Of a stretch of 64,000 bases of DNA, positions 5,804 through 64,000 are shown in pieces. The notes beneath the pieces were generated by a model. That model ran no database searches. It was given only the letters and a program-made list of their open reading frames with translations, and was not told the origin of the DNA. The DNA is from a bacterium. GTDB lineage: Bacteria; Fibrobacterota; Fibrobacteria; UBA11236. Each line of letters opens with the position of its first letter. The stretch's first letter is position 1. The DNA is taken from positions 14,788-78,787 of the forward strand of contig OMJM01000031.1 of assembly GCA_900299345.1 (NCBI GenBank), given 5' to 3'. The translations under genes and the position numbers were made by a program.

Positions 5804-6086
5804 AAAGGCGTTCCTTCCGATCTGGTAGTTTGGGGAAGTCTAAGCTGCTTTTTTACCCGAAATTCGTCAATTTTTAATTGAATCGGAAGCAAAACATGTC
5901 AAAAATATCCTAGAAATACGCGCCCCACTGAAAAATTCAAGAACGATAATCTACCAAAGCCCTCATTCAGCGAAATTCGCCAAGCGTGCTGGCGAAAAAC
6001 GTATTATATTCCCTTCACTTGACACCCTCCTTGCCAGCAAGGAACTACAAGTTTTGAATCACAGACGCAATCACGGGGGAGATCCA

Positions 6087-8390: not shown

Positions 8391-8413
8391 GACCCCACTT
8401 TTCCTAAGAAAAA

Positions 8414-8448
8414 GGCCTTCGGGGATTCCCCGGAGGCTTTTTTCTTTG
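8414..8448 (+). terminator. rho-independent terminator after paralog A
   Basis: 11-bp stem GCCTTCGGGGA/TCCCCGGAGGC (one G-U pair) with 1-nt loop followed by TTTTTTCTTTG. Confidence 0.65.
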
Positions 8449-8617
8449 ATAACGGAAAATTCAGGATTTCGAAGGTACTTGTAGAATTCTACCCCAAAAA
8501 CCATCACCCGACCTTATATTTGAAGGGCTCGGTTATCCTCCATCTACGTTTTTGGCCGCGATAATCAAGATTATTCCGAAAATTCGGGAAACAAAAATTT
8601 CTAAGGAGAGGGTGAAC

Positions 8618-33862: not shown

Positions 33863-35281
33863 ATGAACCCACTTTTACAACGTTCTTTGCTTAAAAAACT
33901 CGGGTTTGCAGCGGTTGGGGTCACGTTGGGCGTTTTGCTGCTCAACAGTTGCGACGACATCGGATATAGCCCTTACGCACCGGTCATCACCTACAAGAAG
34001 GTGGCCATTTCTGCCTTCAAAAACACGGCCATTCTTCCCGATTACGTGGTGGCTTCGGGTGACGGGGTGATCGACGGGTATTCCGTCAGCCCTGCCCTTC
34101 CGACGGGTCTGACATTGGATGCAAAAACCGGCACCATCTCGGGCACTCCTACCGCCGGAACCCCCTGTCAGAACTACGTCGTCTCCGCATCTGGCCCCAG
34201 TGGCCACGATACGTCAACCGTAACGATCTGTGTGAGTGACAGCGCGAACACCTATCGTGTCAACAAAGGCCCTTTCCCGCCCTTCATTACTTACAAACGG
34301 CTTTCGATTGAGGCCGTTAAAAACAAGACTATTCGTTCGGATACTGTGATCGATACTACTGGCGGCGCCATTACCAGTTATTCAGTTACTCCCGCACTGC
34401 CGGCGGGCCTGGCCTTGAACACCGCCAACGGCGTCATTTCCGGAAAACCCACCACCACGGATACTGCAGCGCGCCTCTACACGATTACCGCAACCGGCCC
34501 CAGTGGCACGGGTGACGCCCACATAGGAATTTGTATTGCCCCCGACAGCCTGCATCCTTGCGTTGCCGATGTGCGTCCGCCCTCCGTCTATTATAACGAA
34601 AGCTTCATCTGGACGACTCCTGGAGTGGCGCTTGTACCCGACAGCGCCAACTCGTTCGCAGGACGGATTACCAAGTTTACCGTGTCTCCCGCATTGCCGG
34701 CAGGCATCAGCCTGGATTCCGTCAAAGGCATCATTTCCGGAACCCCGACGGCTACTGTCACGGCGCGTGATTACCACGTTCTGGTGACCGGACCATTCGG
34801 CATTGACTCGTCACAAATCATCTATATCGCTGTTTTCGACAACAATATTCCGCAAGCCCTGTTGAAAAAAGGAAAGGCGCGTTTCAGCGGTGTTTGTTCC
34901 GGCTGTCACGGTCAATTAGGTTTGGGTGCACCGCCTGATGTTCATCCGGGTCGTGGCGCCACTCCGCCACTGGCGCATTCCGACTTCCTGATGGCCAATC
35001 GCCATCGTCCCATCCGCATCCAAATGATGGGACTTCCCAATGCCATCGACTCCTTCGCGCCCATTATCGTGGCCGGTGACACATATGATTCTCACATGCC
35101 CTCCGTCGGAGGAAATGATTCAGACATTGCCTCTGTACTGACCTTCGTCCGAGCCATGTTCAATGGAGCCACGGATTATATAAGCGTCAGTGAAGTGGCT
35201 CATGTCCGTGACAGCGTGGCCGCATTGGATTGTGATCGCGATGGCCAGCGTGACGGTTGCGGTATCGACACGACGCACTAG
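33863..35281 (+). CDS. lipoprotein with four He_PIG (putative Ig) repeats fused to a C-terminal mono-heme cytochrome c domain
   Basis: Lipobox LLLNSC; four repeats of ..Y(S/T)V(S/T)PALPaGL.LD...G.ISGTPT.. (He_PIG signature); single CSGCH heme-binding motif followed by HMPSV (possible Met ligand). Confidence 0.7.
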   Translation: MNPLLQRSLLKKLGFAAVGVTLGVLLLNSCDDIGYSPYAPVITYKKVAISAFKNTAILPDYVVASGDGVIDGYSVSPALPTGLTLDAKTGTISGTPTAGTPCQNYVVSASGPSGHDTSTVTICVSDSANTYRVNKGPFPPFITYKRLSIEAVKNKTIRSDTVIDTTGGAITSYSVTPALPAGLALNTANGVISGKPTTTDTAARLYTITATGPSGTGDAHIGICIAPDSLHPCVADVRPPSVYYNESFIWTTPGVALVPDSANSFAGRITKFTVSPALPAGISLDSVKGIISGTPTATVTARDYHVLVTGPFGIDSSQIIYIAVFDNNIPQALLKKGKARFSGVCSGCHGQLGLGAPPDVHPGRGATPPLAHSDFLMANRHRPIRIQMMGLPNAIDSFAPIIVAGDTYDSHMPSVGGNDSDIASVLTFVRAMFNGATDYISVSEVAHVRDSVAALDCDRDGQRDGCGIDTTH

Positions 35282-45482: not shown

Positions 45483-46730
45483 CTAGGGTGTTTTTAAGAC
45501 TACCGCTCGCGCCCGCCCGGTAGGGTGCAGCTGCGAAATCTTCCGCCCCTTCACATCAATCGGGGCCGTTCCATCGTCCAAAAGTTTTTTCAAAGCTGCT
45601 TTTCTAGTGGCGATGGAAACAGGAGGCTGCGTCGCACCCAAGGTAACCGCGGTAGCGCCGGATTTCTGGGTTTCATAACTCAACTTGGCCCAGTTGGCGG
45701 AACGAACCACATTGGAAAGCTGTGATTCATCGAGTACTCCCTGATAGTAGGCGTCGCCCGTGAAAAAGGAGCGACCCATGTAAGCGGTGCGGGCCACAAC
45801 TGCAAGCGCTGCGGTAAGGGTACCTGCCTGAGCCTGTACACCATTGTGATATACCACGGTCGACATGCCGTTCAACGTAACGAGATAATGATGCCATTGA
45901 TTCACGGTCAGCACGCCGGTGGCGGTGGTCATACCCAGCGAAGTTCCCCCGTTACGAAACTCCAGCGTCAAATTATTGGTGGTGCCATTGCGGAAAAGTT
46001 CAATATTCCCGTTGGCATTTGCGCCCGCGGCGGCTTCAAACAGTCGTGAATAGGCTCGATTGGCATCGGTGGGATAAGCCCAAACGGAATAGCTGAATCC
46101 GCTGCTGTAATCCATGTACCCTCCGCCCAACGTCAGGTGATCACTGGTGCTTCCCGCTGCGCCACCGCGCAAGGTATCCGCCAGACCAATAACTCCGGCC
46201 TTGGCGGCATAACCACCCGGAAAATTCACAGGCGTTGCAGCATTACCCCCCTGCACGGCATTGGGACGCGCAGCAGTTCCAGAAGCGTCCCCCATATGCC
46301 ACACACCTTGAAATCCATTGGCCGCAGAGAAAACCTGTCCGCCGTTGGAACTGTCACCCGCACCATTTTTTCCCCAGCACATCCGCAAGGTGGTGGTGCT
46401 GTTTCCCAACACAGTGTCCAGCAACACCCAGAATTCCGCGGCCTTGGCCGCGCTATCCCAGCGCTCGCGTTGATGGGGAAACCTTGATGTTCCATCTGCC
46501 GTGGTGAAGCGAATGTCAGCACCATTAATTGCCGCCAGCGAAAACACGTCAGCATTTAAGGGCGTGAGACGCACCAGCAAGGGAAATTTGCCGACACCCC
46601 CGGTGACATTTGCACCCGTAGAAGTTGTATTCACAGTGATCATCTTGTAATGCGACCATGTCCCATAATTCTCCTGCGCCCCGGCGGCGAAAGCACAGAC
46701 GAGCAGAAAACGGATCATCGACTGAATCAT
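45483..46730 (-). CDS. secreted DUF2341 + LamG (concanavalin-A-like lectin) domain protein
   Basis: Signal peptide; YGTWSHYKMITVNT...FPLLVRL...IRFTTADGTSRFPHQRERWD..AEFWVLL = DUF2341 signature; downstream LamG/Laminin_G_3-like region; paralogous to the N-terminus of 46743..49244. Confidence 0.6.
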   Translation of the reverse strand: MIQSMIRFLLVCAFAAGAQENYGTWSHYKMITVNTTSTGANVTGGVGKFPLLVRLTPLNADVFSLAAINGADIRFTTADGTSRFPHQRERWDSAAKAAEFWVLLDTVLGNSTTTLRMCWGKNGAGDSSNGGQVFSAANGFQGVWHMGDASGTAARPNAVQGGNAATPVNFPGGYAAKAGVIGLADTLRGGAAGSTSDHLTLGGGYMDYSSGFSYSVWAYPTDANRAYSRLFEAAAGANANGNIELFRNGTTNNLTLEFRNGGTSLGMTTATGVLTVNQWHHYLVTLNGMSTVVYHNGVQAQAGTLTAALAVVARTAYMGRSFFTGDAYYQGVLDESQLSNVVRSANWAKLSYETQKSGATAVTLGATQPPVSIATRKAALKKLLDDGTAPIDVKGRKISQLHPTGRARAVVLKTP

Positions 46731-46742
46731 GACAGGTAACCT

Positions 46743-49244
46743 TTAGAGTGACAGGATGATTTTGGACGCTGCAAGCACTTCGGGCTTCCCTGTGCCATCC
46801 GAAATCACCTGCACGAAGTAAACTCCCGGAACCGGGAAGCCACCCTCGGAATGACCATCCCACGACACCTGTGTCGCCCCACTTTTAACATGACGACTCC
46901 AGACCGAACGACCATGCACATTGAGCACGGAAACAAGAACCGGACCGATTCCATTTGGCAGACGGATGGTGATCGAAGAAAGCCCATTGATATCTATCCC
47001 ATGTAAATTGCGGATCTGCGCTTCTATTGAAGATGAGGATATCACCCAAAGCGTCAAAATCGCGGTCGTGGAACCCACTGCATTGGTCGCCGTGATAGTG
47101 AAATCCGAGTAAGACGGGGTGGATGCCGTGGGCGTTCCAGAAATAATTCCCGTCAAGGTATCGAATGCAAGACCCGCAGGCAATACGGGGGTGATACTCC
47201 ATCGCGTCACTGTTCCTGTCACCGTCGGAGTATTCGCGGCAATGGTCTGACCTTGCGTGTACGTGGCTGGATTGGCGTTATAAAACAGTCCTGATGGAGC
47301 GCCGTACACCGTAATGCTGATCGTGACGGTTGCGGAACCCGCCGCATTGGTGGCAGTGACTGTATAGGTTTTCGTGGCCACAGTAGATGTGGGTGTTCCA
47401 GAAATCACACCTGTAGTGGCATTGAGACTCAAGCCCGCCGGTAGTGCTGGGTTCACCGCATAGGTCGCCACAGTACCCGTCACAGTCGGGTTGTTGGCGG
47501 TGATCGCGATGCCGCGCGGGTAGTTCGCCGTGGGAGTGGAATAGGAAAGTCCCGTGGGAGGTGCCAACACCGTGATGTTTACAGTTGCTGTCGTGGAACC
47601 TGCAGAATTACCGGCAGTCACGATATAATTGGTCGCTGGTGAGACTGCCGTGGGCGTTCCCGAGATAACACCCGTCGAGGTGCTCATCGTCAATCCGGCG
47701 GGAAGCGCGGGGGAAATCGAATACGACGTCACCGTGCCCGTCACCGTAGGACTATTCGCAGTGATGGCCGTATTGAGACCATAAATCGCGGGAGATGACG
47801 AGTACGACAATCCCGTGGGTGCGACCAGGCTTCCGTTCACCGCTATGGATAGTTGCGCAGTGGCGGAACCTCCAGCGTTGGTGGCAGTAATCGTATACGT
47901 CGTGGCGGATGCCGTGGCTGTCGGTGTTCCGGAAATCACACCCGTCTGCGTGTCGAAGGACAATCCGGCGGAAAGCGCCGGAGAAATCGAATAGGATGCC
48001 ACGCTGCCGCTCACCCGAGGGGTGCTGGCTGGAATGGCATAACCCACCGTATACACAGCGGGATTGGGGGCATAAGAGAGATTGTAAGGTGCGATGGCTG
48101 CCGTGGCGCCCAAAAGCACAAAAGAGGAATCCGTGCGCTGAGTCTGATAGCTCAATTTGATCCAGTCCGCAGACTGCGCCCTGCCCGCAAGCTCCACTTC
48201 ATCCATTGTACCGTTGAAATACTGATCATAGGGGGCCGACGAATCCATCTTTCCAATCGTGAATGCATCGGGCCAGACTTGATCCAAAGATGTCATGCCG
48301 GTCGCCGAATTGGTGGCCCTTTGTGTGCCGTTGATGTATATGATTCTGGAATTCGCCGTGAGCGTGGCGGCCACATGGTACCACGTATTGTTCGTCGCGG
48401 TGACTGTGGAACTGAGCGTTGCATCGGCACCACCATCCAGGGAATAAAACAACGAAATAAGACCCGCATTGTTGGTCACCAAGGCATATTGACGATTCGA
48501 TCCGTTACTGTAGGTATACCGGCCGGCCATGCACTGGACGGGATTGGTATTGCTGGTATTGGTTCCGGTGCGACGCATCCAGAAGGAAAGCGTCACGCCA
48601 TCGGTGCTGTTCATGTCGAGTCCACCATTGACATTTGTGGCAGTGAGGTATTTTCCATTCAGACCCGTGGCACCCTGGCCCGAACCATTGGCAAGGTTGA
48701 CCGCCTTGCCAATCATTCCATCCACGGAAGCAGGGCTGTTCTGCCATTTCGCTTCGAGATTACTGGGAGTTGCATCCGCGGATGGCGTTGAACTTTCCCC
48801 CAAATGCCACACTGCACGGAATGAATTGTCCCTGTTGAAGACCGCCGTTCCGCTCGAACTGTCCGGGGCACCGGTCTTGGACCAATAAATCTGGAGAGTG
48901 GTCGTATCGTTCCCTTTGACGTTCGGAACACGCACCCAAAATTCCGCCAACTTATTGGTTACATCCCAACGCTCACGTTGATAGACCAGATGCGTGGTGC
49001 CTCGGGCAAAACGAATGTCGAATCCATTCGCAAGCGCCCCTGTAAAAATGTCATTGGCGTTTGTGGCGTTGAGACGCACAAGCACGGGAAAGTCCGTTTG
49101 GGCGTTGGTAACACGAGCTCCACCAGCCTGATTACGGGTATCGATGACGATGGGTTTGTAGTACCCCCATGTCGTATAATCTTCCGCAGACACCAACGTG
49201 GATAAGCCAACTAGAAAACCGAAAAAACAAGCTTTGATGGACAT
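46743..49244 (-). CDS. secreted DUF2341 + LamG + six He_PIG repeats + T9SS-type C-terminal domain protein
   Basis: DYTTWGYYKPIVIDT..FPVLVRL..IRFARGTTHLVYQRERWD..AEFWVRV (DUF2341); six repeats ..SYSISPAL.AGL.....TGVISGTPTA..; C-terminus ..GGFPVPGVYFVQVISDGTGKPEVLAASKIILSL. Confidence 0.65.
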   Translation of the reverse strand: MSIKACFFGFLVGLSTLVSAEDYTTWGYYKPIVIDTRNQAGGARVTNAQTDFPVLVRLNATNANDIFTGALANGFDIRFARGTTHLVYQRERWDVTNKLAEFWVRVPNVKGNDTTTLQIYWSKTGAPDSSSGTAVFNRDNSFRAVWHLGESSTPSADATPSNLEAKWQNSPASVDGMIGKAVNLANGSGQGATGLNGKYLTATNVNGGLDMNSTDGVTLSFWMRRTGTNTSNTNPVQCMAGRYTYSNGSNRQYALVTNNAGLISLFYSLDGGADATLSSTVTATNNTWYHVAATLTANSRIIYINGTQRATNSATGMTSLDQVWPDAFTIGKMDSSAPYDQYFNGTMDEVELAGRAQSADWIKLSYQTQRTDSSFVLLGATAAIAPYNLSYAPNPAVYTVGYAIPASTPRVSGSVASYSISPALSAGLSFDTQTGVISGTPTATASATTYTITATNAGGSATAQLSIAVNGSLVAPTGLSYSSSPAIYGLNTAITANSPTVTGTVTSYSISPALPAGLTMSTSTGVISGTPTAVSPATNYIVTAGNSAGSTTATVNITVLAPPTGLSYSTPTANYPRGIAITANNPTVTGTVATYAVNPALPAGLSLNATTGVISGTPTSTVATKTYTVTATNAAGSATVTISITVYGAPSGLFYNANPATYTQGQTIAANTPTVTGTVTRWSITPVLPAGLAFDTLTGIISGTPTASTPSYSDFTITATNAVGSTTAILTLWVISSSSIEAQIRNLHGIDINGLSSITIRLPNGIGPVLVSVLNVHGRSVWSRHVKSGATQVSWDGHSEGGFPVPGVYFVQVISDGTGKPEVLAASKIILSL

Positions 49245-52891: not shown

Positions 52892-53269
52892 ATGTCCACA
52901 GCTGCCATCCGGGGCTTTGCCGCCATCGCAAACGACCACCTCGAGGCGCCGCTGGATATTTATCGCCTCTTGGTGAAGCATCCTGCAGCAACCTTCATCA
53001 TGCGAGCCAGCGGGCAGTCCATGAGCCCGGCGATTTGCAGCGGCGACCTGCTGTTGGTGGACAAATCGCTCACCGCGCGCGATGGCGACATCATCATCGC
53101 CTCGGTCAACGGAGAACTGATGGTCAAGCGTCTGTTCAAGCGCGAGGGCCTGCTCACCTTACTGCCGGAAAACCGTGAGTACTCCCCCATCGACGTGACT
53201 GCGGGTTTCGACTTCCAGATCTGGGGCGTGGTCACCTACATCATCCGCGACACGTGTACGCCATCGTAG
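52892..53269 (+). CDS. umuD: translesion-synthesis protein UmuD (S24 LexA-like peptidase)
   Basis: S24 catalytic Ser in ASGQSMSP and Lys in MVKRL; 125 aa; overlaps umuC start by 16 nt. Confidence 0.85.
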   Translation: MSTAAIRGFAAIANDHLEAPLDIYRLLVKHPAATFIMRASGQSMSPAICSGDLLLVDKSLTARDGDIIIASVNGELMVKRLFKREGLLTLLPENREYSPIDVTAGFDFQIWGVVTYIIRDTCTPS

Positions 53270-54507
53270 ACTGCAATAACTTCTTCGTCAGTTGCGAGCG
53301 TGTCTTCAATCCACGGCTGGAAGGCCGGCCCGTGGTGGTGCTTTCCAACAATGATGGCTGCGCGGTCTCGCGTTCCGATGAAGCCAAGGCACTGGGTGTT
53401 CCCATGGGCGCTCCGCGCTTCAAGTTCCGCGACCTCGAGAAACGTCACGGCATCGTGTGCCTGTCGTCCAATTTCGAATTGTACGCCGACATGTCGCGGC
53501 GGGTCATGTCCCTGTTCGATCAATGGTCCCCGGACGTGGAACCATACAGCATCGACGAGGCCTTTCTCTGGCTTCAAAATCCCTCGCGTGATTATCTCGA
53601 AAAAATCGCCCGGGAGATCCAGACAACGGTCAAACAGTGGACGGGAATTCCCGTGTCCGTGGGTGTCAGTACCACGAAGACGCTTTCCAAGGCTGCCAAT
53701 GACTTTGCCAAGCGCAACAAACTGGGAATCAAGATTCTGCCAATTGCAGAAGCGCCGGAAATGCTCTCCAGGCTGCACGCCAAGGATATCTGGGGCATCG
53801 GCCGCAAATTGACGGAATGGCTGGGTGAACGAGACATTCAGACGGCCCTGGAACTGAGCAACACCCCGGATCGCTGGATACGAAAACATCTCGGAGTCAC
53901 CGTGGAACGCACCGTGATGGAACTCCGGGGAATCCCCTGCATCCCCATGAACTGCCATCCCGGCGCACAGCGGAACATGGTGCATGCGCGCTCCTTCAGC
54001 CACCGGGTGGACTCCAAAGATGAACTCCGCACGGCCGTGGCCTATTACGCGGAACGCGTCGCGGCCAAACTGCGCCGGGAAAAATTGGCCGCGCAAGCCG
54101 CATGCGTTTTCCTGTCCACCGACTACCACAAGCCGCAGGACTCGCAGTATCACGGCTCGGAAACCTTGGCGTTTCAGGTGCCGACGAATTTCACCCCCGA
54201 GGTCGTGGAATACGCCCTGAAGGCGTTCGATCAAACCTTCCGTTCCGGCTTCCGCTATAAGAAAGCTGGAGTCATGATGCTGGAACTGGTCCCTCAGGGC
54301 GAGGTGCAGGGAGAACTTTTCGATAAGGTGGATCGTTTCAAAGCCAAAAAATTGATGTCCGCGTTGGATATTATGCAAGCGCGGCACGGCGAACGGGCTT
54401 TGCATTTCGCCATGGGAGGCGCGCAGGATGGCTGGCAATCGAAACGGGAATTCCGGACCCCGCGCTATACGACAAAATGGAACGAAATTCCGGTGGCACG
54501 CGCGTGA
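53254..54507 (+). CDS. umuC: Y-family DNA polymerase V catalytic subunit UmuC
   Basis: MYAIVDCNNFFVSCERVFNPRLEGRPVVVLSNNDGCAV N-terminus diagnostic of UmuC/DinB family; 417 aa. Confidence 0.9.
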   Translation: MYAIVDCNNFFVSCERVFNPRLEGRPVVVLSNNDGCAVSRSDEAKALGVPMGAPRFKFRDLEKRHGIVCLSSNFELYADMSRRVMSLFDQWSPDVEPYSIDEAFLWLQNPSRDYLEKIAREIQTTVKQWTGIPVSVGVSTTKTLSKAANDFAKRNKLGIKILPIAEAPEMLSRLHAKDIWGIGRKLTEWLGERDIQTALELSNTPDRWIRKHLGVTVERTVMELRGIPCIPMNCHPGAQRNMVHARSFSHRVDSKDELRTAVAYYAERVAAKLRREKLAAQAACVFLSTDYHKPQDSQYHGSETLAFQVPTNFTPEVVEYALKAFDQTFRSGFRYKKAGVMMLELVPQGEVQGELFDKVDRFKAKKLMSALDIMQARHGERALHFAMGGAQDGWQSKREFRTPRYTTKWNEIPVARA

Positions 54508-54631: not shown

Positions 54632-54655
54632 TTTTGACCTTGATTTCCGAAACGA

Positions 54656-54690
54656 AAAAGCCGTTCCCAAAGGAACGGCTTTTTCGTTTT
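54656..54690. terminator. bidirectional rho-independent terminator between tRNA-Lys and convergent DUF1080 gene
   Basis: 8-bp stem GCCGTTCC/GGAACGGC with 4-nt loop flanked by A-run upstream and TTTTTCGTTTT downstream. Confidence 0.65.
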
Positions 54691-54703: not shown

Positions 54704-55717
54704 CTAGTGCACGTACACCTTTTGCAACACGGTGTTTTTAGCGGAAGAAATCCGGACGATGAACATACCGGATTTCGCCAAGGCAAGGCGCTGCTCCGCG
54801 ACGGGACCGCCTTCCCCGCGCACAGAACGGATGGTTTTTCCGGACAGGTCCATGACCTCGACGGAGTATTTTCCCGGAACCGGCACGCGAATCAGCAATG
54901 AGTTTCGACCGCCTTCGACGGCATAGCGGGATTGCGATTGGAGGGCGCCATTGATGGCCGTGCCACCGCCAACGCCGTCCATGTTACGAATCTTGATGTT
55001 TTTGAACTGGGAAACCTTGACGGTTTCGTATTGAAGCGCGATAAGTCCAGGAGAGGTCGCAGCCACGTGCTGCGCGTTGGTCAGCTTGAGGGTGGTGCAG
55101 GTTATTCTCGTCGAGGGGCTCGCGAAGCCGTTGGGAAAATAGGACATGGTGATGGAGTCATTCACGATTTTGTAACTCAAATCCATGAAGTTGGTGGTGT
55201 TGAGATGGCACGAAGCAGGAGCGGTCGCCAAGGTCGTGTTCCCGCTATTGTAAACGTTACCGGTATATGTGGGGCCCAAATCGATTTGAGGGCCGAAAAC
55301 CCGGTATCCCTGACTCTGGCCTCCGCAAAGGTTGGTAATGGTTCCGCTACCGCAAAACCCACGCATGTTGAAACCGGAGTTACCGCTCGGACTACTCGTC
55401 ATACGCCAAGAGAAACGAAGCTCAATGTTCGCCTGTGTGGGAGATGCCTGAAACTTCCAAACAAGATTGGTCCATCCAGGATCTCCAGTGTGAGCCAGTC
55501 CATCGGTGGTTATCATGGCGCTGTCCGTGCCTGGATTGGCGATTCCCCAATTGGCGGTATGCGGCCAGAACTGGGTGGTGTCCAAAGTTCTCCTGTTCCA
55601 CAGGTCGTGGTACAAGGTGTCATTTTGCCAGATGGAATCCGGGATGGCGGAAAAAATCGAGGTGGCCCATACGAACGACACAAACAACGCTGAACCGAAA
55701 AGTCTTGTGGTTTTCAT
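54704..55717 (-). CDS. secreted DUF1080 (3-keto-disaccharide hydrolase-like, LamG fold) protein with T9SS-type C-terminal domain
   Basis: Signal peptide; NSGFNMRG..GYRVFGPQIDL and LQYETVKVSQFKNIKIRNM match DUF1080 blocks; C-terminal tail KYSVEVMDLSGKTIRSV...GMFIVRISSAKNTVLQKVYVH. Confidence 0.7.
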   Translation of the reverse strand: MKTTRLFGSALFVSFVWATSIFSAIPDSIWQNDTLYHDLWNRRTLDTTQFWPHTANWGIANPGTDSAMITTDGLAHTGDPGWTNLVWKFQASPTQANIELRFSWRMTSSPSGNSGFNMRGFCGSGTITNLCGGQSQGYRVFGPQIDLGPTYTGNVYNSGNTTLATAPASCHLNTTNFMDLSYKIVNDSITMSYFPNGFASPSTRITCTTLKLTNAQHVAATSPGLIALQYETVKVSQFKNIKIRNMDGVGGGTAINGALQSQSRYAVEGGRNSLLIRVPVPGKYSVEVMDLSGKTIRSVRGEGGPVAEQRLALAKSGMFIVRISSAKNTVLQKVYVH

Positions 55718-55743
55718 GAAATTCTCCCCGTTAAAAACGTCAA

Positions 55744-57156
55744 TTAAATGGCCACCTGAACGCGTAGCACGTAATACCAGGAGTCCTTCTGCAACATGAC
55801 ATCACCGTAGGACCTGTCAAAACGATTGGTAAACAACTGCATGATTTGCATGTGGTCACTGGATGCCTTGGCGGTGACGGAAAGTGATTTCCATAAGGAT
55901 TTAGTCGCAGTAACCGACCATCTAAAATCATCGCCGTCCACGGCGTCGCGAGCGGATAGGCCGAGGTTCGTATTCCCATCCAAATACGGAGCTGCCACGG
56001 GACCGGTGGTGCTATTCGCCACTTTGAAATCCGAATTCAGGTAGGGATTTTTCCAATATTCCCCTTCCACGCTCAACAGATCGAGCACGCCCCACGTCGG
56101 AATGTTCAATCCCAGCATGATCGGCATCCTCTCCATGGGTTTATCGTAGAATACGGGATAATTTTGCACTCCCAACATCGCCCATTCGCCGTAAAGTTTC
56201 AAGTCGACGGCATTTCCGAAAATAGGCTTGAAGTCGATGGAAAAACGGGTCATCAGCATCTGCCCCTTCAGCGAATAATAACCCAAGCCAGAGACTCCTG
56301 AGGGAAGCGCCTTGCTCGTGTCGTTCAACACCTGATACACGGAGTCGGCGATGGCGGAATCGGCGCCCGAGTAGTAACCGGGAATGGTGGTGTATTTTTT
56401 TCCGTTGGAATAGGTAAAATACGCGTTCAACGGTTCATTTTTATTGGTCTCCAGCTCCGATTGAACGGGGATCAGGCGAAACAGGTTGACTCCAGCCCCA
56501 AATTCAAGAACAGAATTGATCCGATAGCTTGTGATATACGCCAGGCTGAAATCCCCCAGCGGGAAGCTGGCGTTGGAGCTTATCAAAAAGAGGTCGTTCT
56601 TCCATTTCCCCCCTGCGGCGGTCTTGCTCAAAATACCGCCTAAAATATTGGCGTGTGCCGCGTTGACGACGTCAAACGGCGAGTTCAAAACAGTATTGGG
56701 ATAGGGAGTGGAACGGAAAAGATATTCCCCCAAATCTTTGGAATCCGGATTGTATTTGTAAGGAAGGGCGCCAAAGGTGATCTCGAGAGCCGGAGCTTTC
56801 ACATCGCCCCACTTGTAGGAACCCGAAGCCTGAACCATTGATACGGCGGGGAAAAGCTCGTTTTGAAAGGGATATGGAAACGTACCGGAATTGTGGGGAA
56901 GGGAGAAAACCGTGGCCCCCAAACCAAAAGTCAAATCGGTTCTCTCATTCAGAGTCGCGCCCCCGAAAACCCAGCCGGTGGGCCTTATCATAAACATGGG
57001 GGCAAAGGATTCCGTTGGCACAGAACTGATCGGCGAAAAAGTCTGAAACTGCTCCAAGGCGACGCCAGCACTAACAGGATGCACCACCACATCTGCGGGC
57101 GCTGGCAATACCGCAAGGGATGCCAGACCCAAAATGGTACTCAGGGCTTTTTTCAT
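55744..57156 (-). CDS. putative outer-membrane beta-barrel protein, tandem paralog 2
   Basis: Signal peptide MKKALSTILGLASLAVLPAPA; alternating amphipathic strands; C-terminus SWYYVLRVQVAI shared with the upstream paralog; ATG immediately follows the upstream TAG. Confidence 0.5.
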   Translation of the reverse strand: MKKALSTILGLASLAVLPAPADVVVHPVSAGVALEQFQTFSPISSVPTESFAPMFMIRPTGWVFGGATLNERTDLTFGLGATVFSLPHNSGTFPYPFQNELFPAVSMVQASGSYKWGDVKAPALEITFGALPYKYNPDSKDLGEYLFRSTPYPNTVLNSPFDVVNAAHANILGGILSKTAAGGKWKNDLFLISSNASFPLGDFSLAYITSYRINSVLEFGAGVNLFRLIPVQSELETNKNEPLNAYFTYSNGKKYTTIPGYYSGADSAIADSVYQVLNDTSKALPSGVSGLGYYSLKGQMLMTRFSIDFKPIFGNAVDLKLYGEWAMLGVQNYPVFYDKPMERMPIMLGLNIPTWGVLDLLSVEGEYWKNPYLNSDFKVANSTTGPVAAPYLDGNTNLGLSARDAVDGDDFRWSVTATKSLWKSLSVTAKASSDHMQIMQLFTNRFDRSYGDVMLQKDSWYYVLRVQVAI

Positions 57157-58458
57157 CTAGATGGCCACCTGCACGCGGAGCACATAGTACCAGGAACCCT
57201 TGCGAGACATCACGTCGCCATAAGACTTCGAAGGAAAGCCGCCCACATTGAATTCCATCATTTGCAAATGATCATTTGCCGCCTTGGCGGTCAACGAAAT
57301 TGTTTTGGCCAAAGAGCGGGTGGCCGAAACTGACCATCTCAAATCATCATCTTTCACAGCATCCGTCGGCTTCAAATCCAGCTGCTTGTAAGAGTTGGTA
57401 TAATCCAAGTTCGGCGTTCCAGAACCATTATTGATAATGCCCAGTGTGGAATTCAGATAGGGATTCTTCCAATATTCCATTTCCACGTTCAGCATGTCGA
57501 GCACCCCCCAGGTGGGGATGTTCAATCCAACCATCACGGGCAGCCTGTCCATCATCTTGTCGTAATAACGGGGAAAATTCTGGACGCCCAGCAGGGTTCC
57601 CTCCCCGTAGAGCTTCAGGTCTGTTCCAAGAACAGGCTTGAAGTCGAGAGAAAACCTCGCCATTATCATCTGCCCTTTCAGCGAATAATAGCCCGAGCTG
57701 TCAGGATAGCGGTTGGTATCAGCCTTCCACGTGGTGATTGACGGCTGAACGGGTATCAGACGAAAAAGATTGACTCCGGCACCCAACTCCAAAATCGGAC
57801 TGATCCGATAACTGGTCACATAAGCCAGGCTGAAATCGTACAAGGGGCTGGATTGGGTGGCGCTGGTGATCAACAGATCATTTTTCCAGCTTCCCCCAAA
57901 CATGTTTTTGCTCAACATCAAGGCCAGGATATTCGCCTGGGCCGAATTGACCAGATCGAAAGGTGAATTCAACACGGTGTTGGGATAGGGCGTGGAACGG
58001 AATAGGTATTCGCCCAGATTCTTTGCATCCGGATTGTACTTGTAGGGCATTTGCCCGAAGGTCAGCTTGAGCGCGGGCTCTTTCAAATCCCCCCACGTAT
58101 AGGAACCTGATGCCTGTACCAAGGCCACTGCCGGGAACAACTCAGTTTGGTAATTGGTGCTCCTCGGATATGAACCGCTGTCATGCGGCAGTGAAAAAGT
58201 GGTCGCTCCGATTCCCATGACGAGGGAGATTCTGTCGTTGATGGTGGCGCTTTCAAAAATCCACCCCGTGGGCCTCACCATGAGCAAGGGTTCGGCAGGA
58301 TGGGCCAAGTTCAAATAACTATTCGCATTGTAAAGCTGGAAAGCTTCCAGAGCCACTCCCGCATTCACGGGGTTTCGCACCACATCCGTCGAGGCGGCTG
58401 AAAACATGAGGAGCGGCAAACCGGAAAGGATCCACTTCATGCCAGACTTCATTTTCAC
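57157..58458 (-). CDS. putative outer-membrane beta-barrel protein, tandem paralog 1
   Basis: Signal peptide; collinear similarity to 55744..57156 (..RPTGW.F..AT.N.R..L..G.GAT.FSLPH.SG..P.. ; ..LFRSTPYPNTVLNSPFD.VN.A.ANIL..); same C-terminal SWYYVLRVQVAI. Confidence 0.5.
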   Translation of the reverse strand: MKMKSGMKWILSGLPLLMFSAASTDVVRNPVNAGVALEAFQLYNANSYLNLAHPAEPLLMVRPTGWIFESATINDRISLVMGIGATTFSLPHDSGSYPRSTNYQTELFPAVALVQASGSYTWGDLKEPALKLTFGQMPYKYNPDAKNLGEYLFRSTPYPNTVLNSPFDLVNSAQANILALMLSKNMFGGSWKNDLLITSATQSSPLYDFSLAYVTSYRISPILELGAGVNLFRLIPVQPSITTWKADTNRYPDSSGYYSLKGQMIMARFSLDFKPVLGTDLKLYGEGTLLGVQNFPRYYDKMMDRLPVMVGLNIPTWGVLDMLNVEMEYWKNPYLNSTLGIINNGSGTPNLDYTNSYKQLDLKPTDAVKDDDLRWSVSATRSLAKTISLTAKAANDHLQMMEFNVGGFPSKSYGDVMSRKGSWYYVLRVQVAI

Positions 58459-58474
58459 TCCTTATACCTTCGTT

Positions 58475-58521
58475 AAATCACGGAAAACACCATGAGAGAG
58501 AAACCTATCCTCCCTCATGGT
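58475..58521 (-). terminator. putative terminator/attenuator hairpin between the dehydrogenase gene and the barrel genes
   Basis: 12-bp stem ACCATGAGAGAG/CTCCCTCATGGT (one mismatch) with 9-nt loop, followed on the minus strand by GTTTTCC. Confidence 0.35.
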
Positions 58522-58537
58522 TCAGAAACGCCTCAAA

Positions 58538-60406
58538 TCAACGGGTAAACTTCGCCTGAAGAATTCCCTTTTCCAGATCACTGGGGACCTGTACGCTGGA
58601 TTCGTTGCCACGGTAAGACCAGACTTCCCTACCCTGCAGATTGTATAGCGTGACGCCGGAATATCCTTGAGGGATATTCACCATCGACCCGGGCATGGCG
58701 GAAACCATCAGCTTGCCTTGCTTGACGGAACGTCCTGTCTGCCAGATGCCTGTAGGCACGGGCACGACCTGCGAGCGCGGCGTGGCCAGCGGGGTCAGTT
58801 GGGCATGGGTGAGCATGAAAATGTCATGCCATTGAAAAGCACCACTGCTGCTCGACGACAACACAATGGGATACAGGTTGCCGTAAGAGTCCTCTGACCA
58901 AGTGGTGATTCCGTTGTGGTTTTGATCTCCACTGAAGGCGTAACTGGTGGGAAAATTCCCAACAAATACTGGAGCAACTCGATCGACCTTGGCTGCGAAA
59001 AAACGATTCCGCACGCCGTTTACGGCTCCATTGATATCGCTAATAATCATGTATCCATAAAACGGAGAGGAGACGTCCCCACGAATCACAGGGCTGATAT
59101 TTCCGACATTTGCAGACGAGTTCGCAGCAGAATTCGCAAGGTTATCGGTGGCTCCCGTGGCATGTCCGGTATACCACGCGGCGTTTTGAAAATTCGCGCA
59201 CGTGTAGGTTCCATTATAGGCAGTTCCTGTCACCGTACGAGTATACGGGGTGATGAAGCCCGCCGTGCCAGTGGTACCGATATTGGTGTTGGTCGATGTG
59301 TAACCTCCGCCCGCAGAGGTACTATCCAAATTGGCACCCACATGACAGGGACCTTCGATACCGGAGCTGTTGGCTCCCGCAGTTGAATTATCTCCGCCGT
59401 TATTCCAGCCATAGTTTCTGCCCGGAAGAATGTGGTTAATCTCTTCCCAACGGCTCTGTCCGGTTTCGGCGCCGTACAACTGGTTCGTTAAATAATTGAA
59501 AGACAACGAGTAGGTGTTGCGAAAACCGAAGGCATACACTTCCTTCCTGACGGCAGGATTGCTCACGTTGTACCAAGGATTATCGCTCGGGATCGTATAG
59601 ATTCCGCACGGAAGATTCGTGTTGGAAGGAGCCGTGTAGGCGGTGGCTCCACAAGCTCTCGCCGGATCCACTTGAGAAACATTGATGCGAAGGATCTTCC
59701 TGCCAGTGATGGTACTGTCCCAACTGGAAAGGTTGTATGCGTCAGTGGTGATGTACAGCATACCGTCGTTGCCGAAAACCATATTGCTGGAGCCATATCC
59801 TGTCCCATGAAAAAGGCGGATCATTTCAGTATCGCGTGCTACGCTCTTGAAATCGGCTGACATGATGTAACGATCCACGACCACAATGGCAGTGGGATTG
59901 TTGGGGCCATCGTTGTTTCCGCTGGGTGTCGTGCCCGCTCTGTATTGACTGGCAACAGGGTACTTGTTGTAAATGACATAGAAATAGTGGTTGGTTTTGA
60001 AATTCGGATCAAAACTGCCACCCAACGCTCCAAATTCCCAACCCTTCATCACCCATGTGTTGAAATCAGCCACCTGAGTGCGTGTGTACTTCTTGACAGT
60101 ACCGTAAGAGACGGTGGTGTCCACGGCAACACCCTGCGCGTTGGTGTCAGGATAAAGTGTCCACATGTAACCAAAGTACCCGACCACAAGGAAATGTTTG
60201 GGCTTTCCAGGAACTTCCCACATACCCACATAGGGCAGCTTGTCCTTCCTGAAGCTCAATCCTGCCTGGGTTGTGTCATAGATGGGGGTTACCGAAACGC
60301 CGGTGGGCAAGCTCTGTGCGGAAGACGTGGCCACGAGAATGGCGACTGCTGCGAAAAGCGACAAGGTAATGCGTTTACGAAATGCGGAGTCAAGAAAATT
60401 TTTCAT
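58538..60406 (-). CDS. secreted PQQ-dependent sugar dehydrogenase-like beta-propeller (soluble glucose/sorbosone dehydrogenase family) with T9SS-type C-terminal domain
   Basis: Start at MKNFLDS (60406) with signal peptide; GSDH-family blocks: HGTGYGSSNMVFGNDGMLYITTD, GRKILRIN, EVYAFGFRNTYSLSFN, GRNYGWN; C-terminal tail ..YSGVTLYNLQGREVWSYRG...GILQAKFTR. Confidence 0.65.
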   Translation of the reverse strand: MKNFLDSAFRKRITLSLFAAVAILVATSSAQSLPTGVSVTPIYDTTQAGLSFRKDKLPYVGMWEVPGKPKHFLVVGYFGYMWTLYPDTNAQGVAVDTTVSYGTVKKYTRTQVADFNTWVMKGWEFGALGGSFDPNFKTNHYFYVIYNKYPVASQYRAGTTPSGNNDGPNNPTAIVVVDRYIMSADFKSVARDTEMIRLFHGTGYGSSNMVFGNDGMLYITTDAYNLSSWDSTITGRKILRINVSQVDPARACGATAYTAPSNTNLPCGIYTIPSDNPWYNVSNPAVRKEVYAFGFRNTYSLSFNYLTNQLYGAETGQSRWEEINHILPGRNYGWNNGGDNSTAGANSSGIEGPCHVGANLDSTSAGGGYTSTNTNIGTTGTAGFITPYTRTVTGTAYNGTYTCANFQNAAWYTGHATGATDNLANSAANSSANVGNISPVIRGDVSSPFYGYMIISDINGAVNGVRNRFFAAKVDRVAPVFVGNFPTSYAFSGDQNHNGITTWSEDSYGNLYPIVLSSSSSGAFQWHDIFMLTHAQLTPLATPRSQVVPVPTGIWQTGRSVKQGKLMVSAMPGSMVNIPQGYSGVTLYNLQGREVWSYRGNESSVQVPSDLEKGILQAKFTR

Positions 60407-60656
60407 GCGCTCTCCTTTGAATTCTATGCAAGCCGGAAAAGAGTTTCGGCGTACAGCAATGTATTGTGGCTTTTGGTTCCCCGCTGGCAAAAAAAGACAA
60501 AGCGGGAAATCCCAAACACTAACGGGCCTTTAAAAAGATCCCGACATATTTGATTTGTTTGGGAGAATCCGAAGCACGCGTTCGATCGCGGAGGGAAAAT
60601 CGCTCGGGATAATGTCACAATGGCCGCGGATATTGGCCAAAAGTGACTTTTATCCT

Positions 60657-61766
60657 CTAGTATTTTTCCGTCAAAAATCTAGCGCGTAGTATTCCCTTTT
60701 CGACATCGACGGGAACGACGGCACGAACATCGGAACCCCGGAAAGACCACACAAGCCTGCCCCGAAGATTGTACAGCTGCAATCCGGAATACCCCTTGGG
60801 GATGTCTATCCACCGTTCACCCGACGCGTTCACCATCAACTCGCGGCCAGTCAGCTTCCGATTTCTCTCCTGATTCAAGAGCGCGACGGGCTTCCCGGTG
60901 GCTGAATCAAGAATTTGAATTTGGAAGTTGCGATAATAAATGACGGAGCCCTCGGATTGCAATCCAATGTTTCCACGGCTGTAAGCGACACGGGGTGTGG
61001 GATTGTTCGGATTGACCCGGGTCTGGAAATTCCACCCCTTCGTGCGGACAACACCGTTCAAGATGAAGGTTCCGCTGTCAGCACCGTACATATACGCCTC
61101 TCCCTGATTCCACTGGCCCAGAGGTTTTTCAGGGTTGGGGACAGTACTGTAAATGGTCCTGTTCCCCCACGGATTATCCGTCCATACGATTCCGGTAGGG
61201 CTGTATTTCCAGGCAACCGAATCCACCACCCGGGTGGTGATGTAAGGGCCCAGACTGGCGGCGGACCATAGGGTGAAAGGATCACCGCCGTCATTGCCGT
61301 CCCTTTTCATGTTGACTTCGATGGACTGAGGTCTGTTGTTGGTGGTGTTGTAGGACGAGGATAGCAACGAGGCGCTGTCGAGATTGATCAACAACCCGGC
61401 ATTCGCCGTCGCGGCAGTGCCCGTCGGCCACATGTACTGGACGCGGACGTGGTAATAGGAGTATTGACGGATCGTGCCGATGTAGCCGTTCGGCACACCG
61501 CTTCCACCGACCTTGATCGTCTTTCCAGTGTCCACCTGGAACATCGCGGTAGTTTGATTCGCAATGCGGACACGAGCAGAATCTTGGGCTATGGTAACCC
61601 GACCGTAACCCGCCTGTCCATTGGTGGTGGCTTTGGCGTAAACATAAAGACCGTTGAAATTGGTCCCGTTAAACAGGTTAGTCCATCCCGAATCCGCAGA
61701 AGTCTGAGCCAGAACAGCCTGACTCAGACCCAAACAATACAGCCCTGCCCTGAAAATCTTGCCCAT
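60657..61766 (-). CDS. secreted DUF1080 (3-keto-disaccharide hydrolase-like) protein with T9SS-type C-terminal domain
   Basis: Signal peptide MGKIFRAGLYCLGLSQAVLAQ; blocks GWTNLFNGTNFNGL, FILNGVVRTKGWNF, GNIGLQSEGSVIYYRNFQIQIL typical of DUF1080; C-terminal tail ..YSGLQLYNLRGRLVWSFRG...GILRARFLTEKY. Confidence 0.7.
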   Translation of the reverse strand: MGKIFRAGLYCLGLSQAVLAQTSADSGWTNLFNGTNFNGLYVYAKATTNGQAGYGRVTIAQDSARVRIANQTTAMFQVDTGKTIKVGGSGVPNGYIGTIRQYSYYHVRVQYMWPTGTAATANAGLLINLDSASLLSSSYNTTNNRPQSIEVNMKRDGNDGGDPFTLWSAASLGPYITTRVVDSVAWKYSPTGIVWTDNPWGNRTIYSTVPNPEKPLGQWNQGEAYMYGADSGTFILNGVVRTKGWNFQTRVNPNNPTPRVAYSRGNIGLQSEGSVIYYRNFQIQILDSATGKPVALLNQERNRKLTGRELMVNASGERWIDIPKGYSGLQLYNLRGRLVWSFRGSDVRAVVPVDVEKGILRARFLTEKY

Positions 61767-61772
61767 GTGGAT

Positions 61773-63722
61773 CTATCTCGTGGAGATCAAACGGGAATAC
61801 GTTTGGTTCCCCGCCTGAACCCTCACGACACTCATGCCAGATGAAAGTTCTGAAGGCTGGAACAGGATCTGCTCGCTTCCACGGCCCTGACGCGTGGCCC
61901 GCACTTCACCCTTGAGGTTGGTGACCCAGACCTTATAGGGCGCGTCCTGCGAAAGGATTAGATTCAAACGCACCATTCCTCCGGGAATCGCACTAAGCGT
62001 AAACGGATCCTTGCCCGCTGAAGTGCGATAATTTTCAATCGCAACTGCAGCCGAAGCCGGACCAAAGGCATTGAGTGTGTAAAAGGCTTCCGTGCCGTAA
62101 AGCGTTTCATTCGCATCGGTCTTCATGGCGTCAGTCCAACGGAAATAGTATTGCCAATGCGCCGTAAGCTGGCCGGCCGGGAAGGTCACAACCACCTTCT
62201 TGCGATCGGCCTGAACCGTCGCCGAAGTGACTTGAACAGTAGCCACGCTGCCTGTCGTGGCAGTGGACGTCGTGCTGGCCGCACCGATACGGCAGCAGCC
62301 ATAGTTTTCGGAAAGCCGATCCCACCATTTCTGGACCGCGATATTGGCAGTCACGTCGTTGCCAAGGCTGGTGGCCAAAGGCTTGGTGAATTCGAACTCG
62401 AAAGTGTTGGCGCCCGTGCTGCGCACGGCCAGCATTTCAAAAGGCGCTGCCGCGCCACTGACGCTGATGCGATCCAAGCCCACGCTGGTGTTTCGGGTCC
62501 AGCCGGCGGAGGTGGCTCCGTTCGCACCGCAGTAAAAATTGCCGTCGGGCCCGGTGACCAAGGCGAAACACGCATTCTTGCTGAATCCGCTCGGAGTCGA
62601 GGTTCCCCCGAACACGGTGTTCCGGGCGAACTGAAACACGGCACCCTGATATTCGCCGTCTGCGGTTTGCTCAACATAGGCGCGAACCATCACACCGGAT
62701 CCGGATTCTCCGTTGTCGGATTCCGCGATGAGAAGTTGACCGGCATAAACGCCGCTTTTGATTTCAACGAATTGGGCCGTCGATCGCTGCCACCCAATCG
62801 GACCCGCTCCGGAGGCGCTTGTATTCTTGAACGGGATGTTCAGCACGAAAGGCGTTGCGAGCGAAAACATGTCTTCCGGACTGGAATAGGGAAATTTGAC
62901 ATTGGTGGGATTCATTGCGCGCGATGTCGGCTGGAACATTGAAGGAGGATTCACGGGACGACCGTACCAACGCCCGGCCTTGGGGTTATACACCACACTC
63001 GAAGGCCGGTATCCCCCCTGGATTTCCGCCACCCAAGGCTGGCCGTAGACCATGGAGAAACCTCCGGGAACCCGCAGACCGCCGCTGAACACCTCGAGGG
63101 CGCCGTCGCTTCTGCGAACGCGCAGCACACCATTGTGGCGCCCGGCCGGAACAGGATCGATGGAAGTTCCCGAGCTGACGGTGGGATCGCCGAAGGCGGC
63201 ATAGAACCAGGTACCGTCGTACGGAAGCCCCATGGCATATTCTTTTGAGTTCACCGACTTGGTCCAGTCATAGGCGATGGCCCGGTACTCGTCGGCCGTG
63301 CCATCGTGATCGTTGTCGAGCAACAAGGTCACCTGATCCTTTTCCAGCACATAGATGGAATCGTTGACCACTTTCACACCCAGAGCTTCGACAAGCCCTG
63401 TGGCGAACTTGGTCACCGTGGCGGACTTGGGGTTGCTTCCCACGATTTCCTTGCTGACGATGAAAACTTCGTAAGGGTCCCGCCAGCTCGTCACCACGAG
63501 GCGGCCGTCGGACATGAAATCCATGCCGCCGATGGGGAAAGCCAGAGCCCCTCCCGTGGCTGGCCACGGGGTTCCAGCCGCTGCAGTGGTTCCGCTGCTG
63601 GGACGGATGTCTGTGACGGTATAGGAGGGATGGGCGCCTGCCACGGGCTGGCGGTCTCCGGCCCGTTGGGCGGAGGCAATGGAAATAAGAACGCAGGGGA
63701 TGAGGTATTTGATGAGTTTCAT
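61773..63722 (-). CDS. secreted beta-propeller protein ('membrane-bound dehydrogenase domain'-like) with T9SS-type C-terminal domain
   Basis: Signal peptide MKLIKYLIPCVLISIASAQ; MDFMSDGRLVVTSW and VTLLLDNDHDGTADEY blocks resembling the DxDGDG propeller family; C-terminal tail ..YKVWVTNLKGEVRATRQG....GMSVVRVQAGNQTYSRLIST. Confidence 0.5.
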   Translation of the reverse strand: MKLIKYLIPCVLISIASAQRAGDRQPVAGAHPSYTVTDIRPSSGTTAAAGTPWPATGGALAFPIGGMDFMSDGRLVVTSWRDPYEVFIVSKEIVGSNPKSATVTKFATGLVEALGVKVVNDSIYVLEKDQVTLLLDNDHDGTADEYRAIAYDWTKSVNSKEYAMGLPYDGTWFYAAFGDPTVSSGTSIDPVPAGRHNGVLRVRRSDGALEVFSGGLRVPGGFSMVYGQPWVAEIQGGYRPSSVVYNPKAGRWYGRPVNPPSMFQPTSRAMNPTNVKFPYSSPEDMFSLATPFVLNIPFKNTSASGAGPIGWQRSTAQFVEIKSGVYAGQLLIAESDNGESGSGVMVRAYVEQTADGEYQGAVFQFARNTVFGGTSTPSGFSKNACFALVTGPDGNFYCGANGATSAGWTRNTSVGLDRISVSGAAAPFEMLAVRSTGANTFEFEFTKPLATSLGNDVTANIAVQKWWDRLSENYGCCRIGAASTTSTATTGSVATVQVTSATVQADRKKVVVTFPAGQLTAHWQYYFRWTDAMKTDANETLYGTEAFYTLNAFGPASAAVAIENYRTSAGKDPFTLSAIPGGMVRLNLILSQDAPYKVWVTNLKGEVRATRQGRGSEQILFQPSELSSGMSVVRVQAGNQTYSRLISTR

Positions 63723-63732
63723 AGCATCTCCC

Positions 63733-63999
63733 TTAGAATGAACCGTTCACGACGGTTTGACCGTTGGCGGTTTGAACAAGTGCCCCACTTTGAATCGTCG
63801 CGGATCCCGAAGTGACCGACCATGCAGAAGCATTGCTGCCTCCCAGATGTTCCAGACGCACCGAATAACCAGCTGGGATTCCCGCGAAGGTGAAGGTGCG
63901 GATGAGATGATTTCCGGAAGGCTGATTGGAGAATTCCGGATTCTCAGACACGGTGATTTCGCTGTTGTTGGGAAGAATCAGACTGTATTTCAAAGTCAT
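63733..63999 (-). CDS. C-terminal fragment of a gene running off the window edge (hypothetical secreted protein)
   Basis: Open frame continues to window end; Ser/Thr/Gly/Asn-rich beta-type sequence; no family recognised. Confidence 0.35.
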   Translation of the reverse strand: MTLKYSLILPNNSEITVSENPEFSNQPSGNHLIRTFTFAGIPAGYSVRLEHLGGSNASAWSVTSGSATIQSGALVQTANGQTVVNGSF

Positions 64000-64000
64000 G

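Follow-up and report, generated by a model that had tools for sequence, protein, structure and literature searches.

A conserved Fibrobacterota gene cluster joining tail-bearing secreted proteins to porin-like outer-membrane barrels: a candidate cassette for carbohydrate acquisition

We examined a 64,000-nucleotide stretch of contig OMJM01000031.1 (hereafter the window), which comes from an uncultured Fibrobacterota bacterium and carries near its end a cluster of genes for secreted proteins and outer-membrane barrels. Six consecutive open reading frames on the minus strand, P1 to P6, were confirmed at 54704-63722, where a preliminary description of this DNA had placed six co-directional genes; the gaps between them, in the order P1 to P6, are 6, 250, 85, 0 and 26 nt. 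By inspection, the N-termini of all six proteins look like Sec signal peptides, in agreement with the signal peptides previously assigned to the four presumed enzymes. The cluster runs beyond the end of the window, and 63722 is not its limit. Upstream of P1 lie U270 (270 aa) and then G0 (562 aa, resembling glucose/sorbosone dehydrogenases, GSDH), the former running off the window and the latter lying wholly outside it, which makes eight genes in all. These eight genes keep one order in the loci L001, L090 and L091, and the same cluster, identical, is found in several independently assembled metagenomes; the earlier view of a functional cluster of secreted proteins with two outer-membrane barrels is thus borne out by conservation across assemblies. 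Within the Fibrobacterota, the organism belongs to non-Fibrobacter lineages from freshwater, groundwater and soil. The features within the window are as follows.

63733..64000, minus strand: 3' end of U270 (last 88 codons), conserved upstream partner of P1-type genes
61773..63722, minus strand: P1, 649 aa; signal peptide, divergent propeller, immunoglobulin (Ig)-like domain and a tail like type A of a type IX secretion system (T9SS)
60657..61766, minus strand: P2, 369 aa; signal peptide, PF06439 jelly roll, short basic type-2 tail
58538..60406, minus strand: P3, 622 aa; signal peptide, GSDH-fold propeller, short basic type-2 tail
58489..58521, minus strand: 14-bp hairpin between P3 and P4, a pattern match from a terminator-like scan
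57157..58458, minus strand: P4, 431-433 aa; outer-membrane beta-barrel, tandem paralog of P5
55744..57156, minus strand: P5, 470 aa; 16-stranded porin-like outer-membrane barrel of a Fibrobacterota-specific family
54704..55717, minus strand: P6, 337 aa; signal peptide, divergent DUF1080 jelly roll, T9SS type-A C-terminal domain
54649..54690, no strand assigned: 19-bp perfect-palindrome hairpin with A/T runs on both sides, 14 nt past the P6 stop

The two barrels, P4 and P5, are 61% identical and are tandem paralogs, as had been proposed; neither falls into a Pfam or NCBIfam family. Their family has the porin fold, a barrel with an internal loop after strand 5, and its best-conserved part is the 35-residue loop joining strands 5 and 6, the position at which classical porins carry a constriction loop. 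The family is small and essentially confined to the Fibrobacterota, with 52 clusters among 5.8 billion proteins and 150 stretches in the GTDB species representatives, where a single genome has many copies. P4 and P5 may be uptake channels. Elsewhere in the window (25502-31173, minus strand), a 1270-aa TamB-like protein adjoins a 622-aa POTRA-containing (BamA/TamA-like) protein, and this pair is probably the host's module for outer-membrane protein assembly.

The barrels recur with a characteristic set of neighbors. The Fibrobacterota loci that we fetched hold 76 runs of barrel genes (34 single, 32 double and 10 triple), of which 8 lie at contig ends, leaving 68 that could be assessed. A ThuA-like (27) or DUF1080-like (19) gene directly flanks 46 of the 68, on the same strand and at no more than 700 bp, and most of these 46 flanking proteins bear a C-terminal tail of type 1 (described below). 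When 40 flanking proteins were scanned against Pfam, 24 matched ThuA, 13 matched PF06439 and 15 matched Por_Secre_tail. The order GSDH-like, DUF1080-like, barrel, DUF1080-like is retained in relatives whose barrels are 38-64% identical to those of the window, and GSDH-like and P1-like genes stand beside barrels only in the clade nearest to it. Other recurring neighbors are extra DUF1080 proteins (13 loci), large Ig-repeat proteins (10), P1-like propellers (9), DUF4423 proteins (8) and, in 6-9 loci, parts of a CUT1-type sugar ABC (ATP-binding cassette) importer, namely SBP_bac_1, a permease and a MalK-like ATPase. Genes of the Gfo/Idh/MocA type lie near barrels in 5 loci; their products are cytoplasmic or, in L030, carry a twin-arginine translocation (Tat) signal, and none is tailed. 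ThuA and DUF1080 are both tied to 3-keto-glycoside metabolism (PMC8121099; bioRxiv 10.1101/2024.03.25.586180); ThuAB, for instance, forms 3-keto-disaccharides (PMC8121099). The carbohydrate theme of the preliminary description therefore appears real, since the two families that flank the barrels across the Fibrobacterota are both connected to 3-keto-disaccharide metabolism.

Two variants of this arrangement deserve mention in their own right. In locus L030 (4946-12077, from the metagenome-assembled genome, or MAG, nzgw217), the Gfo/Idh/MocA gene encodes the twin-arginine leader MNRRQML and lies directly upstream of a gene for a tail-bearing protein and three tandem barrel genes; this is the sole cassette we saw with a likely periplasmic oxidoreductase. 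In seven loci from Fibrobacter and Chitinispirillaceae MAGs (L041, L044, L059, L060, L061, L065 and L084), the barrel is single and its neighbors are dihaem proteins (two CxxCH motifs) in place of ThuA or DUF1080; one is a beta-propeller of ~630 aa, the other a ~900-aa protein whose middle domain is of the hydrazine-synthase-alpha type.

Both DUF1080 assignments hold, as P2 (66.9 bits) and P6 (33.2 bits) exceed the PF06439 cut-off of 26.8 bits. A characterized member of this family, BT2157, is a 3-keto-alpha-glucoside 1,2-lyase and hydratase with a conserved site formed by Glu103, Asn134, Glu164, Gln166, Tyr190, Lys245, Gln273 and His275. We mapped these residues through conserved columns and a PDB 8rr2 fragment. 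At the His275 column, Glu stands in P2 and P6 alike, as it does in 111 of the 112 representatives of the P2-type subfamily, a large Q-x-E subfamily of DUF1080. P2 retains an equivalent of Glu164 and has Asn in the Gln166 column; P6 has no equivalent of Glu164. P6 is a divergent relative of the P2-type subfamily (hhalign, 99.3%), and a phmmer search of PDB sequences with P6 returned nothing at E values up to 10. Judged by these residues, neither P2 nor P6 is predicted to be an enzyme of the BT2157 type, which counts against the earlier suggestion of 3-keto-glycoside lyases/hydrolases.

The propeller assignments fared unevenly. P3 (68.7 bits) and G0 (65.7 bits) pass PF07995, whose cut-off is 25 bits, but P1 stays below threshold for both DUF7133 (PF23500; 23.7 bits, cut-off 27) and TIGR02604 (13.7 bits, cut-off 122.2). 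An AlphaFold2 model of P1 (predicted local distance difference test score, pLDDT, of 82) nevertheless resolves into a propeller of six blades, an Ig-like domain and, at the C-terminus, a sandwich of seven strands, and a propeller fold with remote homology to GSDH-type propellers is supported for this protein. Its distant relatives include fusions to DUF1080, cytochrome c, cupredoxin and AP_endonuc_2 domains. P3 and G0 belong to a Fibrobacterota-specific subfamily of ~50 clusters, set apart by a steep drop in the list of P3 homologs from E <1e-100 within the subfamily to ~1e-17 for canonical GSDH proteins.

Inspection of the active site speaks against the view of P3 as a dehydrogenase dependent on pyrroloquinoline quinone (PQQ). 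The column of His144, the catalytic general base of soluble glucose dehydrogenase (sGDH), is occupied by Tyr204 in P3 and by Tyr in its paralog G0; across the subfamily it holds Tyr in 45 of 50 members, Pro in 4 and Phe in 1, as opposed to His in 28 of 28 canonical hits. In P1, the segment that would bear the equivalent residue is deleted. P3 retains Arg228 and Asn229 of sGDH (as Arg296 and Asn297), but other positions have changed (Gln231 to Tyr, Gln246 to Thr, Pro248 to Gln), and the NHNGG and GDGG motifs are remodelled in the P3/G0 subfamily. Against TIGR03606, P3 scores 39.3 bits where the cut-off is 434.55, and all 50 subfamily members are weak matches far below that value. Since the subfamily lacks the catalytic His, annotations of "PQQ-dependent sugar dehydrogenase" in the Fibrobacterota are probably in error.

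U270, the gene between G0 and P1, has its residues 183-270 mapped by tblastn to 63736-63999 of the window. In L016, L019 and L043, genes like it immediately precede P1-like genes, and L043 holds two such U270-P1 pairs in tandem. The product is a secreted protein that has no Pfam match, for which no family was found, and that has no sorting-type tail.

The remaining five secreted proteins (P1, P2, P3, P6 and G0) all end in strongly basic tails, with isoelectric points of 9.9-10.9. The preliminary description had given T9SS tails of about 80 aa to all four of its enzymes. This length holds for P1 and P6 only (type 1, ~80 aa), whereas the tails of P2, P3 and G0 (type 2) measure ~55-60 aa and end 10-15 residues before type 1. 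With the Por_Secre_tail model TIGR04183 (cut-off 23 bits; PF18962 stands for the same type-A sorting domain), P6 passes at 27.3 bits, but P1 (15.6) and P3 (13.4) do not and P2 has no match. A profile built from the P6 tail picks up the P1 tail at E 3.7e-14, and AlphaFold2 models the latter as seven strands over residues 574-648 with pLDDT 83-94. The P2 tail aligns to the C-terminal domain of P6 and stops ~10 residues sooner; for type 2 as a whole, the sole link to type 1 is a profile-profile comparison (94.7%, E 6e-8). The literature places a T9SS in Fibrobacter, a basic terminal domain has been proposed as the T9SS signal of surface enzymes in F. succinogenes (PMC6851124), and Prevotella intermedia is known to have short T9SS signals that function (PMC11969387). 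In a related MAG, SprA (SprA_N) lies ~3 kb upstream of GSDH, the first gene of the same module. Export by a T9SS is thus well supported for P6 and likely for P1; for P2, P3 and G0 it is plausible from the resemblance of their tails.

Two other regions of the window touch on this subject. An 862-aa lipoprotein (39940-42528, plus strand) has an FGE-sulfatase domain that is similar to a portion of GldK/PorK, a ring protein of the T9SS, but its score of 32.7 bits, where the cut-off is 350, means that it is not GldK proper. At 45483-49244 (minus strand), two adjacent proteins contain DUF2341 and Laminin_G_3 domains, to which the larger (46743-49244) adds four He_PIG domains and a T9SS-like tail of type 1; in L011 and L012 the module is flanked by related DUF2341 proteins.

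Taken together, these observations lead us to favor, at a rough probability of 0.5, a widespread Fibrobacterota-specific cassette, represented here by one copy, in which surface proteins and a dedicated outer-membrane channel would serve the acquisition of a carbohydrate or glycoside, in the manner of a polysaccharide utilization locus (PUL). The tailed set would consist of the DUF1080-like jelly rolls P2 and P6 and the six-bladed propellers of GSDH/DUF7133 type, G0, P1 and P3. Held at the cell surface, these proteins may bind a sugar-containing substrate or process it non-oxidatively; the tandem 16-stranded porins P4 and P5, possibly as a hetero-oligomer, would let the product into the periplasm, and in related cassettes CUT1-type ABC importers would carry it further. 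A non-redox role fits better because the canonical dehydrogenase and lyase residues are absent.

Several points weigh against this reading. Twenty-two of the 68 assessable barrel runs have neither a ThuA nor a DUF1080 neighbor, and neither an ABC importer nor a regulator is part of the window cluster. TIGR04183 misses the short tails in 49 of the 50 members of the GSDH-like subfamily (the one detected has E 0.058), and none of the T9SS core genes SprA/Sov, GldK/L/M/N, PorU or PorV is present within the 64-kb window. In addition, polar residues are strongly conserved in the Q-x-E subfamily of DUF1080, which suggests that these proteins may carry out catalysis of some kind; "binding only" is therefore perhaps too modest, and the DUF1080 chemistry here could involve keto-sugars.

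The preliminary description had gone further and proposed that sugars are oxidized at the cell surface and then cleaved. The propellers, with PQQ or another cofactor, would make 3-keto-glycosides, the DUF1080 proteins would cleave these by beta-elimination and hydration, and the porins would import the products. The known activities of BT2157 and ThuAB speak for this scheme, the porin family is tied to the same two enzyme families throughout the lineage, and among the distant relatives of P1 are the fusions to DUF1080, cytochrome c, cupredoxin and AP_endonuc_2 noted above. P3 also preserves the Arg and Asn with which sGDH contacts PQQ, and the Glu in place of His275 could still serve as a base. 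However, all three propellers lack the catalytic His, the whole GSDH-like subfamily falls far under the TIGR03606 cut-off, and P6 is without the Glu164 equivalent. No oxidoreductase, cytochrome or cupredoxin is found among the cluster genes that could oxidize the sugar or accept electrons, CxxCH-bearing neighbors occur only in another set of loci, and an enzyme outside the outer membrane would have no evident path to the respiratory chain. The oxidoreductases of related cassettes, being cytoplasmic or Tat-exported and untailed rather than surface-targeted, likewise argue against oxidation on the cell surface. We therefore regard this scheme as unlikely.

Of the genes elsewhere in the window that had been put forward in its support, two do not withstand inspection. 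We rejected the Gfo/Idh/MocA gene at 4673-5803 as the oxidizing enzyme: it lies 49 kb off, and its product has no signal peptide and therefore cannot act at the surface. The CxxCH lipoprotein encoded at 33863-35281 was rejected as an electron acceptor, as no link to the cluster is supported; its gene lies at a distance of 19 kb, runs on the other strand and has unrelated neighbors. As observations apart from this question, the latter protein (plus strand) has an LLLNSC lipobox, three He_PIG Ig-like domains, a single CSGCH at residue 345 and a weak match to cytochrome c(L) (E 0.007). The cytoplasmic Gfo/Idh/MocA gene is divergent to two tandem paralogs (6054-8390 and 8552-11056, plus strand) that are strong DUF7133/TIGR02604 members without CxxCH and end in a third kind of tail, missed by both tail profiles. 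In the close relative L056, the syntenic tyrS-to-YqeY region has an extra barrel-barrel-ThuA cassette between the Gfo and DUF7133 genes.

Alternatively, the barrels may be membrane partners or anchors for their tailed neighbors rather than uptake channels, the whole forming a surface complex for adhesion or sensing. In Flavobacterium, PorP/SprF-like proteins serve adjacent type-B T9SS cargo, and by analogy the barrels here could do the same: in most loci the barrel genes stand immediately beside the tailed ones and point the same way, and the many cassette copies in a genome each have barrels of their own. However, the tails resemble type A and not type B, sugar ABC importers recur beside the cassettes, and the barrels have a porin fold, all of which makes this alternative rather improbable in our judgment. 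Weaker still is a periplasmic variant, in which the short or divergent tails would have no part in export and the DUF1080, ThuA and propeller proteins would work within the periplasm on glycosides let in by the porins, much as in the periplasmic Bacteroides pathway BT2156-BT2160; although the failure of TIGR04183 on short tails and the Tat-signal Gfo/Idh/MocA directly upstream in L030, reminiscent of the periplasmic Bacteroides and Alistipes oxidoreductases, lend it something, P6 passes TIGR04183, 15 of 40 flanking proteins match Por_Secre_tail, the short tails and the long ones are homologs, and the window cluster has neither a periplasmic oxidoreductase nor a TIM-barrel lyase, and we think it very unlikely.

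A bolder version of the surface cassette can also be imagined, a utilization system not recognized before in which T9SS-displayed ThuA-like and DUF1080-like enzymes and propellers of GSDH/DUF7133 type would carry out non-Koshland (keto-sugar) cleavage of glycans at the surface, with hetero-oligomeric, lineage-specific porins importing the products, the Fibrobacterota being devoid of SusC/SusD-type loci. This we offer as a speculation of low probability.

The favored reading, that of a surface cassette for carbohydrate acquisition, would have some consequence for the biology of the phylum. Although the Fibrobacterota are major degraders of polysaccharides, the passage of substrates and products across their outer membrane is poorly understood, and a phylum-specific porin family is a concrete candidate for the uptake route. 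The published model for F. succinogenes invokes only unnamed beta-barrel proteins for this crossing (PMC6851124). If the reading is true, two poorly characterized "keto-sugar" families would be extended to the cell surface.

The setting of the cluster gives no sign of a mobile or horizontally acquired island, an idea that we rejected on the basis of flat GC content, the absence of an integrase and housekeeping flanks on both sides. The term "island" had been used earlier, but the composition is not distinct (GC 0.51-0.58 in the cluster, ~0.545 for the whole window) and, as shown above, the cluster extends past 63722. Beyond G0, further upstream, lie M23 peptidase and PHP-domain genes; downstream is a convergent tRNA-Lys gene followed by umuDC. 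The hairpin at 54649-54690 is probably a bidirectional terminator that closes both the cluster and the convergent tRNA-Lys gene. For the hairpin at 58489-58521, an internal attenuator or a site of RNA processing is conceivable; overall, the terminator-like scan yields as many matches as shuffled sequence does. The umuD-like (Peptidase_S24) and umuC-like (IMS) pair at 52892-54507 (plus strand), which adjoins the cluster and the tRNA-Lys gene, is followed within a few kb by recA and cinA, forming a small DNA-damage neighborhood.

Every part of the system falls in a known fold or family. Three things appear to be undescribed: the porin family, the systematic way in which it is paired with tail-bearing ThuA-like or DUF1080-like proteins, and the His-less GSDH-like subfamily. 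No account of any of them came up in the literature searched, which covered DUF1080 with ThuA and ThuA with Fibrobacter.

Among known systems, the 3-keto-glycoside pathway of Bacteroides and Alistipes (BT2156-BT2160; AL1-3) shares with the window cluster a DUF1080 protein, clustering of the genes and action on sugars outside the cytoplasm. However, the BT2156-BT2160 pathway is periplasmic and needs a Gfo/Idh/MocA oxidoreductase and a TIM-barrel lyase, both absent from the window cluster, which for its part has Glu at the His275 position in P2 and P6 and adds porins, three propellers and T9SS-type tails. The sGDH and YliI/Asd proteins (PF07995) resemble P3 and G0 in their six-bladed propeller, in the Pfam cut-off that both pass and in the Arg-Asn motif, but P3 and G0 differ in having Tyr for the catalytic His, remodelled NHNGG and GDGG motifs and an added C-terminal sorting tail. 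The haem-binding CxxCH proteins of Planctomycetes-Verrucomicrobia-Chlamydiae (PVC) type (TIGR02604/DUF7133) are remotely related to the P1 propeller and include the two strong members at 6054-11056; however, P1 and that pair have no CxxCH, and sorting-type tails replace the cytochrome domain.

Bacteroidota T9SS type-A cargo and the F. succinogenes enzymes with a basic terminal domain (BTD/Fpm-1) likewise have basic C-terminal beta-sandwich tails on secreted carbohydrate-related proteins, but three of the five tails in the window cluster are short, ending before the last strand. DUF1080, ThuA and GSDH-like cargo are absent from the cargo families of one T9SS review. Finally, the comparison with a Bacteroidota PUL has two sides. 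Here the barrel is 16-stranded and porin-like rather than a TonB-dependent SusC, the surface proteins carry T9SS tags and are not lipoproteins, and no SusC-like or SusD-like Pfam domain is found in any of the eight cluster genes. Like a PUL, however, the system comes as repeated cassettes within a genome and combines surface carbohydrate-related proteins with a dedicated outer-membrane transporter, joined in some cassettes by downstream importers and a local regulator.

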